DNA of 64,000 nucleotides from Naegleria gruberi (Eukaryota): the NCBI GenBank assembly GCA_000004985.1, contig GG738905.1; one strand, written 5' to 3'. Position numbers and translations under genes: made by a program. Shown here one piece after another: positions 11,027 through 47,540 of this stretch. Under the pieces are notes generated by a model. That model made no database searches. It saw only the letters and a program-made list of their open reading frames with translations, and had not been told where the DNA came from. Position 1 is the first letter of the stretch, and every line of letters starts with the position of its first letter.

Positions 11027-12702
11027 TTACAAGTTTTGCAAGCCCAACAATTCAGCAATTCTACGACCATAATCCTTATCAGCCTTATAGAAGATTTGTA
11101 ATTGTCTCAATTGAATTTCCTTCTTGGCATTCTTCAAGTGCAAAGCAATATTGTGAACAAGTCTAGAACGATCATATTCAGTCATAACTTCACGATACAA
11201 AGTACCAGCTTGGACGTAGTCATCATTTGGATGATTTGGCTTGGAACGAGTAATGGCACCTTGAACCTTAGTTGGGTGTTCAATCAATTGCTTAGCTTCA
11301 TATGGACCACCGAATGTGTTTGGTTCATAGTTTGGAGCAGAACCACCGTTACCATTGACAGTCATGGAACCATCTCTGAATTGACAGTTCAATTTAGCCT
11401 TAAGTGGAGCATTAATTGGAATTTGAGCATAGTTAGCGCCCAATCTATGTCTGTGAGTATCTGGATAAGAGAAAAGTCTACCTTGGAGCATCTTGTCAAG
11501 GGATGGTTCAATACCAGGAACCAAGTTAGATGGAGAGAATGCAGATTGTTCAGTTTCGGCAAAGTAATTGTTTGGATTACGATTCAAAACCATTCTACCA
11601 ACTGGAATGAGTGGATAATCCTTGTGTGCCCAAACCTTAGTAATATCAAAAACATCAACTTTGTACTTGGCAGCATCATCAACTGGCATAATTTGGAAAT
11701 AAACCTTCCAAGCTGGGCTGCTTCCTTGCTTAATTGAGTTGAACAAATCACGAGTAGCATGATCTGGATCTTCACCAGCCAAACGAGTGGCTTCTTCAAC
11801 AGTCAAATTCTTAATACCTTGTTCAGTCTTGAAGTGAATCTTAGCCCAGAAAGCTTCACCTTGTGAGTTAACCAATTTGAAAGTGTGACCAGAATAACCG
11901 TTCATGTGACGATAAGAAAATGGTGTACCTCTATCACTGAACAAAACAGTAAGTTGGTGAACTGATTCTGGAGTCAAACTCAAAAAGTCCCAGAATGCAT
12001 CAGGATCCTTCAAGTTTGATTGTGGATTTCTCTTTTGGGTATGGATAAAATCTGGGAATTTAATAGTGTCACGAATGAAGAAAACTGGAGTATTATTACC
12101 AACAAAATCATAATTTCCTTCTTCAGTATAGAATTTAACAGCAAAACCTCTTGGATCTCTATCAGAATCGGCACTACCCTTTTCACCACCAACAGTGGAA
12201 AAACGAGCAAAAACTGGAGTTCTCTTACCAACACGATTCAAGAATGCAGCCTTGGTGAATTTAGTGATATCATGAGTGACTTCAAAATAACCATGAGCAC
12301 CAGCACCCTTTGCGTGAACAACTCTTTCTGGGATTCTATTATAATGCAACAATTAAAATGTATAAAATTAATAAAACAATGTCTTATAATACTAACCTTT
12401 CACGATCAAAGTGGGCCAATTTGCTGATCAAATAAGTATCTTGCAAAAGGATTGGTCCATTATTGCCAGCTGTGAGGGAATTGTTGTTATCAGCAACTGG
12501 ATGGCCAAATTCATCAGTCAAAGTACTGTTGTTGTATAATAATATTATGAATGATGAAAAGCATTTTAATATTAATCAATCGACATATAATTTTAATGTG
12601 TCGTAAATTAAAGAAGATAGGAAAATTCGCACAAAATTGATGAGCACTAGGTTATTGCTCTGAAACCTACCTGGTGTAATCGTAGTTAAAGTTGGTAGAC
12701 AT
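11027..12702 (-). CDS. catA: Catalase (monofunctional heme catalase). Three exons: join(12671..12702, 12397..12525, 11027..12335).
   Basis: Strong catalase signature ...[29 protein letters not shown]...[14 protein letters not shown]... Intron 1 (GTAGGT...AACAG, 12526-12670) and intron 2 (GTTAGT...TAATAG, 12336-12396) restore [54 protein letters not shown] upstream of [10 protein letters not shown]. Confidence 0.9.
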
Positions 12703-31603: not shown

Positions 31604-31675
31604 TCCCGTGTAGTCCAATGGCTAGGATACCTGGCTTTCACCCAGGAGGTCCGGGTTCAATTCCCGGCATGGGAG
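31604..31675 (+). tRNA. tRNA-Glu (anticodon UUC), 72 nt.
   Basis: Cloverleaf: TCCCGTG acceptor pairs with CATGGGA. D-arm GTCCAATGGCTAGGAT. Anticodon stem CCTGG/CCAGG with loop CTTTCAC. T-arm CCGGGTTCAATTCCCGG. No encoded CCA. T-run follows. Confidence 0.9.
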
Positions 31676-33934: not shown

Positions 33935-35259
33935 ATGGTCGAATCCGTTGCTCAACAATTAAGCACCCTCTCCATTTCAACAGGTCCTTTCCAATCCGAT
34001 GGCGAACACTACAAGTTACTTAAAAACTATGAACAAATTGATGCCCACGCAAAATCTATTCCATCCAGTGAAACATCTACCCTTACACAATTGGTAACCT
34101 ACCTCACTAAACCATTCTCTAGCATTGAGGAAAAGGCAAGATCCATCTTTGTCTGGATTTGTGAAAATGTTGTCTATGATGCTGAGAGTTTCCTCTCCAA
34201 TCAGCATGCTGTCTATGTTCCAAGTGAACACGACAAGTTCTTTAGTGAAGATGAAAAGAAGATGTACTGCCCAACTTCTCGTCTTACCTTCATTCAAAAG
34301 AAGGGTGTTTGCAGTGGTTACGCAAGACTCTTCAAGAATATGTGTATTCAATCAGGCATTCAAAAGGTATCATGTGTTGTTGGTTTTGCAAAGCTTGTTG
34401 GTTTCAATCCTTTGAATCCAGTAGATATTAAGGAATCAAACCATGAATGGAATGCTGTTGAACTTGAAGACGGATCTCTCAGATTGATTGATGCTTGTTG
34501 GGGAGCTGGTGTTTTGGGCGGATCATCATTCCAAAAGATTTTCACATCAAGATACTTCTTCATGAGCCCAAATGAAATGATTGCTTCCCACTATCCAGAA
34601 GATCCAAAATTGCAATTAATTTCACCACCTGTTAGTCCTGATGATTTCGTTAATAGAGTTCGTATCAGTACTCATGGATTTGCGGATGGAATTAGCACTA
34701 TCACTCATAATGAAGCTTGCATTGTATTGACAGAATCAAATATTGCTGACATTGTCATTCAATGCGATGAGAATGGATTCCAAGTGTTGCTGATTTGTCA
34801 ACTGGTGAAGAACTTAAAGCTGCCTCTGCTCGTGTTGATGGTCACAATATTATTATCAGTGTTTGTGTTCCACAACCTGGTGTTATTTACCAACTTTCCA
34901 TTTTTGCAGGTGTTAGAAAGTGTGAAGAAATGTTGACTTATTTCGTTAGAGTTGAAGGTGGAGCTAATATTGAGGAAGTTTCCTATCCATCTGAATACGG
35001 CTCTTGGAAGACCTATGCTGGTGAATTAATTTCACCAAAAACTGGTAAAATGAAAGTTGGCACAACCTATTCATTCAAGATTCAATTCCCAGCTGATAAA
35101 ATGGTTGCCATGGTAATGATACCACCAAGTGATCAACTTGTTTCTAAGGGAAATGGTTTGTTTGAAGGTGAATACACCCCAACAGCCCCAGGAAAAGTCA
35201 ATCTTGTTGGTGGTTCTGGATCTAGACTTGAAGGACTATTGGCTTTCGATGTTGTATAA
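33935..35259 (+). CDS. Transglutaminase-like (kyphoscoliosis-peptidase-like) cysteine-protease-fold protein. The reading frame shifts near 34790.
   Basis: Cys-His core ...KKGVCSGYARLFKNMCIQSGI...NHEWNAVELEDGSLRLIDACWGAG... The ORF continues in another frame (34795..35259) with a domain-like sequence, and no intron signals separate the two. This implies a +1/-1 frameshift, an unconventional short intron, or a sequencing error. Confidence 0.55.
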
Positions 35260-35546: not shown

Positions 35547-36545
35547 TTGAACTATTCCATCCAACAAAAACAAAAAATGAAAGCAAATCTAATCTTTTCA
35601 ATTGCACTTCTACTTTTACTTGCAGTCCTCTCAGTTCAAGCAAATGACAGCTATCAAGCCAAACCTCCAGTCGTCGTTGTTGACAAGTATCACAAGCCAA
35701 AGCATTGTAAGAGAAAATGCTTAAAGCATAAGTGGATTAAGAAGTGTTTAAAACACAAACTCGTTGGTCAAAAGAAAGTCTGTGATCAATATGCCATTGT
35801 CGGAGCTGGTAAATGTCTTAAACATAAGAAATATTCCAAATGTGACAAGTATAGCAAGCCAACAAAGAAGTGTGTCTTGCATGCATACAAGATTGTTGGT
35901 TGTGCCAAGAAGAAGTACTGGAAAGTTTGTGATTCTTATGGAACAAAGAAGATTTGCATCAAGAAGGGTTACAAGAAATACTGTGCCAAACATAAGATTA
36001 TTAACAAGTGTTTCAAGAAGGGTGTTAAGAAGGTCTGTAAGAAATTCAAGAAGGTTCCAATCAAGAAATGTGAAAAGAAGAAGGTTTGCGACAAGTACAC
36101 TGTTGATTCCTACAATAAGAAGGTTTCCAAATGTAGATATGTTAAAAAATGTAAGATTGTTTCATGGGCAAAGAAATGTGCCAAGTATAAGAAGGTTAAA
36201 TATTGTAAGGAAAGAAAATCAGTTAAGAAATGTTGTCTCATTAAGAAGAAATACTGTGCCAAACATAAGACTATCAAGTTCTGTAAGCACAAGAAGATTC
36301 TTTCTAAATGTGTCAAATATCAAAAGAAGAAATATTGTGCCAAGACAATTGTCATTCCTCCAAGATGTATCAAGAAGAAGTATTATAAGAAGTGTTTGAA
36401 ACGTTCAAAGGGAAAGAAGATTTGTAAGAAATTTAAATTAGTTGGTGGAAAGAAGAAGTGTTGCAAGTCAATCAAAAAGAAGATTTGTATCAAGAGAAAG
36501 ACATGTAAGAAGTCATCAAAGCCAATCATCAAACCATCTTTGTAA
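35547..36545 (+). CDS. Secreted, extremely Lys- and Cys-rich repetitive protein (about 320 aa after the signal peptide). The likely start is the ATG near 35577.
   Basis: Signal peptide MKANLIFSIALLLLLAVLSVQA. The mature region is roughly 35% Lys with Cys every 8-10 residues, in recurring units such as KKYCAKHK(I/T)I.KC(F/L)KK. Confidence 0.6.
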   Translation: MNYSIQQKQKMKANLIFSIALLLLLAVLSVQANDSYQAKPPVVVVDKYHKPKHCKRKCLKHKWIKKCLKHKLVGQKKVCDQYAIVGAGKCLKHKKYSKCDKYSKPTKKCVLHAYKIVGCAKKKYWKVCDSYGTKKICIKKGYKKYCAKHKIINKCFKKGVKKVCKKFKKVPIKKCEKKKVCDKYTVDSYNKKVSKCRYVKKCKIVSWAKKCAKYKKVKYCKERKSVKKCCLIKKKYCAKHKTIKFCKHKKILSKCVKYQKKKYCAKTIVIPPRCIKKKYYKKCLKRSKGKKICKKFKLVGGKKKCCKSIKKKICIKRKTCKKSSKPIIKPSL

Positions 36546-36750
36546 ATGATTATTTTCAAATGTTTCTAATACCTTAATAAAGCCAGAACCATTCTGCAAA
36601 CTCTTATTGCAAACAAATTTCAAGAAATGTTGGAAATCCTATAGAAGTGAGTTCATTTGGAACAAGCTTCAATTAAACAATTTAAAATCAATTGTATAAG
36701 ATTAAGGTACTATTTTCATTATTAAGGTACTATTTTTACTATGAATGAGA

Positions 36751-36822
36751 TCCCGTGTAGTCCAATGGCTAGGATACCTGGCTTTCACCCAGGAGGTCCG
36801 GGTTCAATTCCCGGCATGGGAG
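36751..36822 (+). tRNA. tRNA-Glu (anticodon UUC), second identical copy.
   Basis: Identical 72-nt sequence to 31604-31675. The identity extends over 13 bp of 5' flank (atgaatgagat). T-run (tctttttacc) downstream. Confidence 0.9.
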
Positions 36823-38483: not shown

Positions 38484-39449
38484 ATGTCAAGCGAAATCAC
38501 AACATCAAATAACAAGAGCAGTATTCTTATTACTGGAGCAACAGGAACAATTGGAAAGCATTTATTGAAGTCACTTTCTGAACAGAAATCATTTGGTCAA
38601 TCAGTGAAGGTTTTGGTGAGGAATATTGAAAAGGCAAAACAAGAACTTGCAAATTATGTAAATAATCTTGATGTAGAATATATTCAAGGTGACTTGAATC
38701 AATTCGAATTAATTCCATCGAGTATTTTTGAAAAGATTGAAAGGGTTTTCGTTTTAACAGTGAGCGAACCAAATCAACCAAAAGTGGAAGAACAATTAAT
38801 TAACAAGATTCTTGAATATTCAAAGGATGATTTGAAACAAGTGATAAGATTATCTGGATTGGGAGCTTCAACAACCATTGAATCGAATAGTTTATTCAGA
38901 TATCATGGCGATTCTGAAGTTGTAATTGGTAATTTACTTTCAAATAAGGCACCAAGCGTTTCCTACGTAATTTTAAGACCTAATCTATTCATGCAAAACT
39001 TCCTTAGAGATGACATTCATTCAATCAAAAACTCATCTCAATTCTTCAAACCAAGAAACGATCATGGAATTCCATATCACATTAGTCATGTTGATGTTAG
39101 AGATATTGCCGATATGGCAGCTCAAATTCTCATTGAAAATCCAAATATTCATGGAGGACAAGTTTACAATATAACTGGACCTCAATCTTTGAATTATGAT
39201 CAAGTAGCTGAGATTATTTCCAAAGTTATTGGCAGACAAATTACTTGGACTAAAATTGATGAAATTGAGTTGGCTAATCAATTAAGCCAATTACCAAAGT
39301 TTTTAGTTATTGGGCTGGTGAGATTATTCCAATTTTACAAATTGAATGGAACCTCTGCTAATGTACATGCAGATTTTGAGATTGTCACTGGAAAGAAACC
39401 AAGATCTTTGGAACAATTCATTCAAGAAAATAAACACCATTTTGAATAA
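38484..39449 (+). CDS. NmrA-like / atypical short-chain dehydrogenase NAD(P)-binding protein, 321 aa.
   Basis: N-terminal Rossmann motif ILITGATGTIGKHLLKSL. The length and motif spacing are typical of the NmrA/PCBER family. Confidence 0.75.
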   Translation: MSSEITTSNNKSSILITGATGTIGKHLLKSLSEQKSFGQSVKVLVRNIEKAKQELANYVNNLDVEYIQGDLNQFELIPSSIFEKIERVFVLTVSEPNQPKVEEQLINKILEYSKDDLKQVIRLSGLGASTTIESNSLFRYHGDSEVVIGNLLSNKAPSVSYVILRPNLFMQNFLRDDIHSIKNSSQFFKPRNDHGIPYHISHVDVRDIADMAAQILIENPNIHGGQVYNITGPQSLNYDQVAEIISKVIGRQITWTKIDEIELANQLSQLPKFLVIGLVRLFQFYKLNGTSANVHADFEIVTGKKPRSLEQFIQENKHHFE

Positions 39450-46853: not shown

Positions 46854-47540
46854 ATGGTCATCCAAGCTAACATTAACAAGAAGAAACACTTTGTTCACCA
46901 AGGTCTCTTGTACGCTGAATTGAACGAATTCTTGAAGAGAGAATTGGCCGAAGATGGTTACTCTGGTGTTGAAGTCAGAGCTACTGTTGCCAGAACTGAA
47001 ATCATCATCCGTGCTACTCGTCCACAAACTGTCGTTGGTGATAACGGAAGAAGAATGAAGGAATTGACTTCAGTCATCCAAAAGAGATTCGGTTTCGAAG
47101 AAGGTAAGATCGAATTGTACGCTGAAAACGTCAAGAATAAGGGTTTGTCTGCCATTGCTCAAGCTGAATCCCTCAAGCAAAAGTTGATGGAAGGTGTTGC
47201 TGTTAGAAAGGCTTGTTATGGTGTCTTGAGATTCGTTATGGATTCTGGTGCTAAGGGTGGTGCTGTTATTGTCTCTGGTAAGCTCAGAGCTCAAAGAGCT
47301 AAGTCCATGAAGTTCGCTGAAGGATACATGATTAGAACTGGTCAACCAGTCAAGGATTACGTTGATATTGCTGTTCGTCACGTATACATGAAGCAAGGTG
47401 TTTTGGGTATCAAGGTTAAGGTTATGCTTCCATGGGTTGTCGGTACTCAAGCCGGTTCCAACCAAAAGCCACAACCAGACGTTGTCTCTGTCCACGAACC
47501 AAAGGAAGATCTCTCCGTCCCAACTGTTGCCCATGATTAA
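46854..47540 (+). CDS. rps3: 40S ribosomal protein S3 (uS3), 228 aa.
   Basis: Collinear with eukaryotic RPS3 (...[24 protein letters not shown]...[17 protein letters not shown]...[13 protein letters not shown]...). The gene is preceded by a 5'-UTR intron-like element (GTAAGT at 46748 ... TACTAAC ... CAG ending 46849). Confidence 0.9.

Follow-up and report, generated by a model that had tools for sequence, protein, structure and literature searches.

We analyzed a 64,000-nucleotide stretch of Naegleria gruberi DNA (GenBank assembly GCA_000004985.1, contig GG738905.1; hereafter the window), whose plus strand holds a gene for a predicted secreted protein of extreme lysine and cysteine content, here called the Lys/Cys protein. 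The gene is an intact, intron-free open reading frame (ORF) that begins with an ATG codon at position 35577, ends with a TAA codon at 36543-36545 and comprises 322 uninterrupted codons, corresponding to a product of 322 amino acids. Its assignment as a complete coding sequence (35577..36545) is based on the ORF list, the translation, and a ratio of nonsynonymous to synonymous substitution rates (dN/dS) of 0.14. The first-pass annotation of this DNA, made from the sequence alone, had placed the ORF at 35547-36545; its frame and stop codon stand, but position 35547 is a TTG triplet, which is a start only under the bacterial code, and the first ATG, the eukaryotic start, lies at 35577. The same annotation had described a secreted, extremely basic Lys/Cys-rich repeat protein with a clean signal peptide, and the composition, signal peptide and periodicity reported below bear out this description.

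The predicted signal peptide covers residues 1-22 (35577..35642, plus strand; MKANLIFSIALLLLLAVLSVQA), with cleavage predicted after VQA and ahead of the dipeptide ND. It is composed of a positively charged n-region, an 18-residue hydrophobic core (mean Kyte-Doolittle hydropathy of 2.6 over residues 3-20), and the VQA tripeptide, and the assignment draws on hydropathy, on the relatives of the protein and on Phobius predictions for its paralogs. The unique N-terminal peptide of the Lys/Cys protein is NDSYQAKPPVVVVDK. A second hydrophobic segment is absent, the maximum Kyte-Doolittle value in any other 19-residue window being 0.25. Likewise, judged by sequence and hydropathy, the hydrophilic C-terminal tail (residues 311-322, 36507..36542, plus strand; KKSSKPIIKPSL) has neither a glycosylphosphatidylinositol-type or membrane segment nor a KDEL/HDEL motif. 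The presence of a signal peptide and the lack of a membrane anchor or endoplasmic reticulum retention signal show the predicted product to be a soluble protein of the secretory pathway.

The mature chain of 300 amino acids contains 107 Lys (35.7%), 32 Cys (10.7%), and 20 Tyr (6.7%) residues; Asp and Glu together occupy nine positions (3.0%), and Pro and Gly account for 3% each. The isoelectric point (pI) of the mature chain is approximately 10.1, and its net charge is approximately +104 at pH 7. These values agree with the first-pass estimates of a mature chain of about 300 residues with about 35% Lys, hardly any acidic residues and a very high pI; the claim of Cys-richness was right as well, although the figure given for it (about 12%) exceeds the measured one. 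In a predicted trypsin digest, the mature protein yields 109 fragments, of which only seven are at least seven residues long and cover 67 of the 300 residues. Standard tryptic proteomics would tend to miss the protein because of this scarcity of long tryptic peptides.

Downstream of the signal peptide, the mature chain starts with a Cys-free segment (residues 23-43, 35643..35705, plus strand; NDSYQAKPPVVVVDKYHKPKH), which carries a D-[ST]-Y motif and the sole N-x-S sequon of the protein (NDS at residue 23). It is followed by two Cys-repeat blocks on the same strand. Block A (residues 44-171, 35706..36089), delineated by its Cys spacing and predicted beta-hairpins, has 15 Cys residues with the spacing series 4, 9, 12, 11, 9, 10, 10, 9, 9, 9, 9, 9, 11, 6, and block B (residues 186-310, 36132..36506), delineated by Cys spacing, has 17 Cys residues spaced mostly by 9-10. 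Between them lies a linker with an invariant VDSY motif (residues 172-185, 36090..36131, plus strand; DKYTVDSYNKKVSK), which was recognized in one of our family alignments (A2) and corresponds to a hairpin turn in the AlphaFold2 (AF2) models.

The spacing between consecutive Cys residues is exactly 9 in 15 of 31 cases, and the remaining intervals are mostly 10-12. The autocorrelation of Cys positions at lag 9 is 15, compared with 3.6 expected (z = 6.8), a value matched by none of 5000 shuffles. This 9-residue period substantiates the quasi-periodic units that had been noticed in the first pass; the particular unit proposed at that stage, KKYCAKHK.I.KC.KK, occurs in one exact copy (residues 133-148) and one near copy (residues 223-239), and the unit consensus is [A/L/I]-K-[K/H/Y]-K-x-x-K-x-C. 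Blocks A and B are weakly alike (z = 5.2, or 3.1 with the Cys residues held fixed). CC pairs occur only twice in the protein, and CxC and CxxC motifs are absent. Tandem Repeats Finder detected no DNA-level tandem repeat in the gene; thus, the periodicity is old and has been maintained at the protein level without recent expansion.

The locus has no annotated model in public protein sets, and an overlapping Arg/Ser-rich frame (+2 frame, 35764..36399, plus strand) is likewise open over 215 codons, as the first-pass annotation had stated. Both points favor a reading in which the Lys/Cys frame is not a gene, being either a chance open frame in an A/G-rich low-complexity stretch, a caveat raised in the first pass itself, or the wrong frame of a locus whose real product is encoded in the Arg/Ser frame. 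For comparison we used a 1343-bp Logan contig (L002, run SRR32051688), which contains an ortholog from a related Naegleria. The window gene and this ortholog are 80.6% identical in nucleotides and 77% identical in amino acids, and every indel between them is a multiple of three. The Nei-Gojobori dN/dS is 0.14 overall and 0.115 across the Cys-repeat region, and the differences gather at third codon positions (49, 36, and 111 at positions 1, 2, and 3, respectively). In contrast, the same aligned nucleotides read in the +2 and +3 frames have omega values of 2.06 and 1.22, with stop codons in both sequences; for the Arg/Ser frame, the aligned comparison contains four stops in the window and six in L002. 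Dual coding in the Arg/Ser frame was rejected.

Codon shuffles of the ORF gave 123 +/- 38 open codons in the +2 frame, and the observed 215 codons were reached by 2.6% of them (97th percentile). An open +2 frame is expected from a sequence rich in Lys codons, since these contain no T, and composition thus largely accounts for the open Arg/Ser frame, which is not a gene. In addition, the same Cys register is found in homologs of three Naegleria species, and the ORF combines a signal peptide with an expression-type codon bias. The non-coding reading, which we consider highly improbable, is thus refuted by the comparative data, and the Lys/Cys frame is shown, as far as sequence comparison can tell, to be a genuine gene of N. 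gruberi NEG-M.

The otherwise intact L002 ortholog has one in-frame TGA codon (L002:632-634, between …YKIN and CSKKK…), which corresponds to codon 35898-35900 of the window, Gly108. The dN/dS is 0.14 ahead of this codon and 0.107 after it, and these low values on both sides indicate that both halves are under purifying selection. Three origins of the TGA are conceivable: an error in sequencing or assembly, a nonsense allele that arose very recently, or recoding or read-through of this codon.

The Lys/Cys gene appears to be unannotated in the N. gruberi reference: its 322-residue product is not contained in a collection of 15 billion sequences, in which no full-length model with more than 50% identity was found. 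The last 136 amino acids (residues 187-322, encoded at 36135-36542) match, at 96% identity, the C-terminus of gene model NAEGRDRAFT_76199 (P0002 in our sequence set), the N-terminus of which consists of SAM and PB1 domains that are not encoded in the window. Thus, 76199 is probably a chimeric model, located on a 39.8-kb scaffold, and it shows that a second, near-identical copy of the gene exists. Within the window itself, tblastn detected no paralog of the protein, and exact-sequence contig look-ups for the window protein and for P0001-P0003 gave no match. Thus, the N. gruberi reference lacks a probably abundant secreted protein at this locus and contains the second copy only as the tail of 76199.

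Relatives of the Lys/Cys protein were collected by profile searches and cluster look-ups. The first profile, which combined the window protein with P0001 and P0003, was searched exhaustively with HMMER against 1.84 billion cluster representatives and gave only 16 matches, two of which are spurious repeat proteins, and recovered 66117, FDP41_004030, and C9374_009239 at E-values of 1e-8 to 1e-20. A second profile of 13 members revealed three further ones, namely 74241 (via P0140) and 57793 and FDP41_002578 (via P0141), at E-values of 1e-47 to 1e-93; overall, the HMMER E-values of the homologs range from 1e-144 to 1e-18. A scan of metagenome DNA with the family motifs produced 600 pattern matches, none of which was confirmed. 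All family matches that carry an organism label are from Naegleria, the rest being soil or metagenome fragments. Together with a neighboring NmrA-like ORF (38484-39446), whose entire length matches N. gruberi NAEGRDRAFT_73482 from a 290,827-bp scaffold at 100% identity, these labels overturn the dictyostelid setting assumed in the first-pass annotation. On the profile evidence, the window protein is a member of a Naegleria-restricted family of predicted secreted proteins with a ladder of Cys residues.

This family comprises at least seven gene models or loci in N. gruberi, as well as members in N. fowleri and N. lovaniensis, all of them labelled as predicted, hypothetical, or uncharacterised, and we divide it into groups (a) to (d). 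Group (a) includes the hyper-Lys proteins of approximately 300 amino acids, that is, the window gene, its copy in 76199, and 67458 (301 amino acids, 46-50% identical to the window protein), along with fragments P0001, P0004, P0005, and P0006 from soil and metagenomes; no ortholog from this group was found in N. fowleri or N. lovaniensis. Group (b) consists of 74241, 71888, and N. fowleri FDP41_004030 (370-396 amino acids), which end in tandem units, in the position of the tail, of either IDSYKP (three to four copies) or VDTYKPPKK (four copies). In group (c), represented by 66117 and N. lovaniensis C9374_009239 (430-475 amino acids), the Cys blocks are parted by Cys-free D-x-Y-x-P spacers, a motif that marks such spacers in the longer paralogs. 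Group (d) contains 57793 and N. fowleri FDP41_002578 (approximately 705 amino acids), where a different Cys-rich region is found ahead of the family domain, the latter constituting the C-terminal half of 57793. Overall, the long paralogs span 370-740 amino acids and have extra Cys-rich domains. The Phobius predictions supplied with the Acrasis kona genome (PMC11589745, Supplementary Data 1) assign a signal peptide and no transmembrane segment (SP=Y, TM=0) to 67458, 66117, 71888, 74241, and 57793, and all full-length relatives begin with the same signal-peptide-type N-terminus.

Several family members have peculiarities of their own. The Cys-rich region of group (d) is a second repeat of approximately 40 amino acids per unit, roughly of the form CP…C..G…C….C, which covers residues ~100-370 of 57793 (P0142) and is also present in FDP41_002578 (P0146); it had no match in Pfam or PDB. 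Fragment P0004 (soil catalogue SRR3989338, 125 amino acids) aligns to residues 1-72 and 167-218 of the window protein, so that approximately 100 residues are missing between two similar KKVCD[QK]Y units; either the repeat collapsed during assembly, or the fragment is a naturally occurring deletion variant. In two ENA contigs of approximately 1.2 kb (P0011 and P0018), the predicted products depart from the family frame behind CLGHG and run on as unrelated sequence, whereas the window gene does not, which suggests an intron or a frameshift after CLGHG in some environmental relatives.

Conservation within the family is concentrated on the Cys residues. In five full-length relatives, which are 26-49% identical to the window protein overall, 26-29 of 30-32 aligned Cys residues are retained (81-91%), compared with 21-60 of about 100 Lys residues and 17-36% identity at other positions. 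The Cys spacing series is common to three species (…4, 10, 12, 11, 9, 10, 9, 9, 9, 9…, and at the C-terminus …9, 9, 9, 10, 9, 10, 12, 9, 7). Directly behind the signal peptide, alignment A2 has an invariant D-S-Y motif, which most members of alignment A3 also carry, and V176, D177, S178, and Y179 of the linker are invariant in A2; the Tyr content of the family members is 6-12%. All members are basic (pI 9.2-10.7), with a combined Lys and Arg content from 17% to 41%; the relatives outside the hypercharged extreme are only moderately basic (pI 9.2-9.9), and in the least basic member the Lys positions are mainly taken by Glu, Gln, Thr, and Ser. The retention of Cys alongside variable Lys indicates that the conserved element is the cysteine scaffold and not the charge.

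Thus, the window protein shares with the other Naegleria relatives the signal peptide, the D-[ST]-Y motif, the Cys spacing series, the strand motif described below, and the basic pI. However, it forms together with 67458 a hypercharged extreme with 33-35% Lys plus Arg, as opposed to 17-26% in the other Naegleria relatives, and neither protein has the Cys-free D-x-Y-x-P spacers, tandem Y-K-P tail, or additional N-terminal Cys-rich region seen in the longer paralogs. Judged by these alignments, the N. gruberi proteins of group (a) have acquired their extreme Lys content as a derived feature, which is not family-wide.

The residues that flank Cys follow a common pattern in seven family members: position +1 is aliphatic at a frequency of 0.25-0.53 (background 0.15-0.21), position +3 is aromatic at 0.43-0.62 (background 0.08-0.21), position -1 is hydrophobic or aromatic, and positions -2, +2, and +4 are basic or polar. 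This pattern is the signature of an amphipathic beta-strand with Cys on its polar or basic face. Structure prediction with AF2 was run on two alignments of 3 and 13 sequences. Past the signal peptide, both runs gave only strands and hairpins, except for one low-confidence helix in the first run (residues 216-229), and the best-scored part is a long hairpin centered on the VDSY linker (residues 150-200), with a predicted local distance difference test score (pLDDT) of 70-89. Pfam scans covered the window protein, 13 aligned members, and four long paralogs; the window protein had no hit at E ≤ 10 and the 16 other members none at E ≤ 1. The PDB was searched by sequence, using the family profile and the 57793 sequence, and by fold, likewise without a match. 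The protein thus matches no described family, in keeping with the first-pass remark that no match to a known dictyostelid family was evident, and a protein without a detectable sequence or structural relative may possess a new fold.

Candidate assignments to known classes were rejected. The first-pass suggestion of a Cys-knot-like protein is not supported: the Cys residues are single and evenly spaced at 9-12, without clustering beyond the two CC pairs, and the Pfam, PDB-sequence and fold searches lend it no match. Metallothioneins are cytosolic and contain approximately 30% Cys in clusters, whereas the window protein has a signal peptide, 10.7% Cys, a spacing of 9-12, and no CxC or CxxC motifs. 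The six-Cys alpha-helical saposin-like fold of naegleriapores, which are released from a multipeptide precursor, is contradicted by a predicted beta structure and by the lack of a saposin match in Pfam. The glycine- and aspartate-containing motif GGxGxDxUx of the RTX nonapeptide beta-roll is missing from the unit consensus, and tandem Tyr-Lys-Pro units of the adhesive or extensin-like type are absent from the window protein and occur only in the paralog tails. Proteins with antistasin-like domains have been reported in Naegleria (PMC12482156); this domain (PF02822 / IPR004094) was matched neither by the window protein (E ≤ 10) nor by the 16 other members (E ≤ 1). The cyst- and oocyst-wall families (COWP type I/II, LRR-CWP, chitin-binding) had no Pfam or PDB-sequence match to the window protein or its relatives.

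Some known systems are nonetheless instructive as comparisons, and by analogy the protein may function in the manner of COWPs, of CotG, or of heparin-binding Lys-rich beta proteins. The COWP/OWP proteins of apicomplexan oocyst walls, the cyst wall proteins (CWPs) of Giardia and the Jacob lectins of Entamoeba are secreted repeat proteins, rich in disulfides, that belong to resistant walls; in COWPs a Cys recurs roughly every 10-12 residues, and Giardia CWP2 has a strongly basic tail. The window protein resembles them in its periodic Cys residues but has no sequence or profile similarity to them and lacks leucine-rich repeat, chitin-binding, and COWP domains. CotG of Bacillus subtilis and its kin are very basic proteins with short Lys/Tyr/Ser-rich tandem repeats that serve as cross-linked structural parts of a resistant coat; however, proteins of this type are bacterial, cytoplasmically made, essentially Cys-free, disordered, and not homologous to the Naegleria family. 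By analogy, the secreted mussel foot proteins Mfp-1, -5, and -6 and plant extensins, which are rich in Lys and Tyr (and partly Cys), have Y-K-P repeats similar to those that end the paralogs as IDSYKP or VDTYKPPKK tails, whereas the window protein has no tandem Y-K-P units, little Pro or Gly, and a conserved 32-Cys scaffold of predicted beta structure; hydroxyproline chemistry is not known from Naegleria. Heparin-binding proteins of the midkine/pleiotrophin type and large cationic antimicrobial proteins are small to medium-sized beta proteins that are secreted, rich in Lys, and stabilised by disulfides, and they bind polyanions; neither sequence nor fold searches matched them, and the Naegleria protein is far more charged and has periodic single Cys residues. 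Finally, the Tenebrio antifreeze protein with its 12-residue coil and the RTX beta-roll share with it a period of 9-12 residues and one structural residue per repeat, and two 9-residue units could make one 18-residue coil of the RTX kind. However, the GGxGxDxUx and TCTxSxxCxxAx motifs of these beta-solenoids are absent, AF2 predicts hairpins (at low confidence), and no fold match was obtained.

Codon usage provides a hint at the expression of the Lys/Cys gene. The GC content at third codon positions is 0.43, compared with a median of 0.27 for 43 window ORFs. None of 25 Val codons is GTA or GTG (41% in seven ordinary neighboring ORFs), none of 23 Ile codons is ATA, and 70% of Lys codons are AAG (47% in the ordinary neighboring ORFs). 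As references for high expression we used the ribosomal protein S3 (RPS3) gene (46854-47537, plus strand) and a catalase ORF (11030-11905, minus strand), in which GTA/GTG codons for Val are nearly absent and AAG accounts for 86-95% of Lys codons; the catalase ORF covers the C-terminal part of the protein and is probably a single exon of a larger gene. By a log-ratio codon score trained on RPS3 and catalase versus ten ordinary genes, the Lys/Cys ORF scores -0.09, and the ten ordinary genes score -0.41 to -0.83. This leaning toward the RPS3/catalase pattern suggests that the gene is highly expressed. High-expression codon bias at a locus without a gene model lends weak, circumstantial support to the structural role proposed below. 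Four of the five paralogs listed in the supplement of PMC11589745 also have only ab initio Joint Genome Institute (JGI) names, which would agree with expression in a stage that the sampling for annotation had missed.

Taken as a whole, the preferred explanation is that of a genuine gene for a disulfide-braced, all-beta polycation with an extracellular structural role, and we give it a probability of roughly 0.4. In this model, the 32 Cys residues would pair between neighboring strands in the oxidising secretory pathway, forming up to 16 bridges, and the chain would fold as an all-beta array of short strands and hairpins, with one aliphatic/aromatic face and an opposite face of Lys side chains and inter-strand disulfides. 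The outcome would be a rigid polycationic rod or sheet, resistant to proteases and denaturants and suited to extended anionic or carbohydrate surfaces. Approximately 100 positive charges and the aromatic face may hold the protein to a putative anionic or polysaccharide wall material, where disulfides, and possibly Tyr cross-links at the conserved D-S-Y motifs, would lock it in place. The role itself, that of an extracellular structural component of a cyst wall, pore plug, or surface coat, is proposed tentatively, with the odds somewhat against it. It is favored by the strong purifying selection over the entire 300-residue scaffold, by the existence of large modular relatives whose Tyr-Lys-Pro tails and D-x-Y-x-P spacers resemble cross-linking or adhesive motifs, by the Tyr content of 6-12%, and by the fact that charge is not the conserved property. 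Among the functions suggested in the first pass (antimicrobial or toxin-like, matrix or coat, polyanion binding), the features of the family thus lean somewhat toward matrix or coat.

Several observations weigh against this proposal. With mean pLDDT values of 42 and 52 in the two AF2 runs and a predicted template modeling score of 0.2, the fold is not established. The codon bias speaks to abundance and not to life stage, and a secreted polycation is equally plausible as a bactericidal agent of a bacterivorous amoeba. In the searchable literature we found no expression, localisation, or biochemical record for any family member: nine gene and protein identifiers are without mention, nothing on the family was found among papers on cyst walls, encystment, and proteomics of Naegleria or on its Lys- or Cys-rich proteins, and, apart from the Phobius listing in PMC11589745, its members were not found in the supplements of papers on the Naegleria pangenome and on the cyst transcriptome, multi-omics, and secretion products of N. 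fowleri. Furthermore, paralog 57793 carries an EST-extended JGI model name (estExt_…; EST, expressed sequence tag), and should this name denote EST coverage, expression of at least some family members may not be limited to cysts.

We weighed three other functions. As an antimicrobial or bacteriolytic effector, phagosomal or secreted, it would bind anionic envelopes and kill or permeabilise bacteria, either intact or as cationic disulfide-stabilised fragments. Its net charge, amphipathic strands, and signal peptide would suit this function, as would a codon bias similar to that of abundant housekeeping proteins. Naegleria feeds on bacteria, and the pore-forming naegleriapores that it releases derive from multipeptide precursors. 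The hyper-cationic subfamily is confined to one lineage, a frequent trait of immune-type effectors, and the EST-extended name of 57793 counts on the same side. However, a dN/dS of 0.11-0.14 across the scaffold is unlike the fast or positive evolution typical of effectors, and with one Cys per 9-residue unit single units cannot be self-contained disulfide peptides. Acidic pro-regions and regular processing sites are lacking, the less cationic relatives still keep the scaffold, and no antimicrobial Pfam family was matched, so that we regard an effector function as unlikely. Binding of DNA, RNA, polyphosphate, or sulfated glycans by a soluble protein for storage, condensing, or scavenging, including the variant of a non-secreted nuclear or organellar protein, would be in line with a charge density comparable to that of histone H1 or protamine-like proteins and with the lack of recognisable enzymatic or lectin domains. 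It is nevertheless quite improbable, given a canonical signal peptide kept in all full-length relatives and a Cys conservation of 81-91%, which argues for an oxidising, extracytoplasmic setting.

Third, by analogy with mussel foot proteins and sandcastle-worm cement, the protein could be a secreted trophozoite adhesive whose Lys, Tyr, and Cys chemistry fastens the cell to surfaces of negative charge such as mineral, glass, or biofilm. The high content of these residues (36%, 6.7%, and 10.7%), the secretion signal without an anchor, and the tandem Tyr-Lys-Pro(-Pro) tails of the group (b) paralogs are all compatible with adhesion. On the other hand, the window protein itself has no such tandem repeats, its Pro and Gly contents are low, unlike in known adhesive proteins, and a conserved 32-Cys scaffold is alien to these mostly disordered adhesives; there is also no evidence of 3,4-dihydroxyphenylalanine or other Tyr modification in Naegleria. 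This possibility is accordingly somewhat fainter than that of an effector. The structural role in a wall, plug, or coat that we prefer also has a bolder version, in which a so far undescribed architecture, a disulfide-laddered beta rod or sheet of ~9-residue single-Cys strands with aromatic and polylysine faces, would be the main protein cement of the Naegleria cyst wall or pore plug; in this strong form we consider it doubtful.

The gene neighborhood includes genes for DUF4419, Ras/Roc GTPase, transglutaminase-like, polyketide-cyclase-like, NmrA-like, and VWA proteins, and no functional clue was seen among these neighbors or at the related loci L001 and L003. The upstream gene (33935-35259, plus strand) encodes a transglutaminase-like core (PF01841, E-value 2e-5; DUF553) without an obvious signal peptide; it spans overlapping ORFs in different frames (33935-34936 and 34795-35259) and probably is one gene with a short intron. 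A functional link between this neighbor and a protein with 36% Lys was considered and rejected, since the adjacency is suggestive but the predicted compartments differ and nothing supports such a link. Downstream of the Lys/Cys gene, an AATAAA hexamer identified by pattern search (36576..36581, plus strand) begins 31 nucleotides past the stop codon and is a candidate polyadenylation signal. Two tRNA-Glu(UUC) genes are located 5 kb apart on the plus strand (31604-31675 and 36751-36822), the second one 206 nucleotides downstream of the Lys/Cys stop codon; the window contains six tRNA genes in all, including two for tRNA-Gly(GCC) on opposite strands. NAEGRDRAFT_73482, the identical counterpart of the NmrA-like ORF, has a twin, 70679, with at least 90% identity on another scaffold, and 74241 and 71888 form a similar pair; in the NEG-M assembly, these regions seem to be represented by duplicated or allelic scaffolds.

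The novelty of the locus lies in its absence from the annotation and in its position as the hyper-cationic extreme of an orphan family, the homologs of which are already present in databases as hypothetical proteins. If it were merely another lineage-specific Cys-rich secreted protein, the interest would be modest. Cysts are the resistant, disinfectant-tolerant stage of Naegleria, and to our knowledge the molecular make-up of their walls and of the surface coats of these amoebae is largely unknown. The conserved, putatively disulfide-locked polycationic scaffold described here is a concrete candidate for cyst-wall or coat material, or for a bactericidal or adhesive function, in a family that includes proteins of the pathogen N. 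fowleri. If the cement hypothesis is true, the family would provide a genus-specific wall component, represented in N. fowleri by FDP41_004030 and FDP41_002578, that would be usable as a cyst marker or target.

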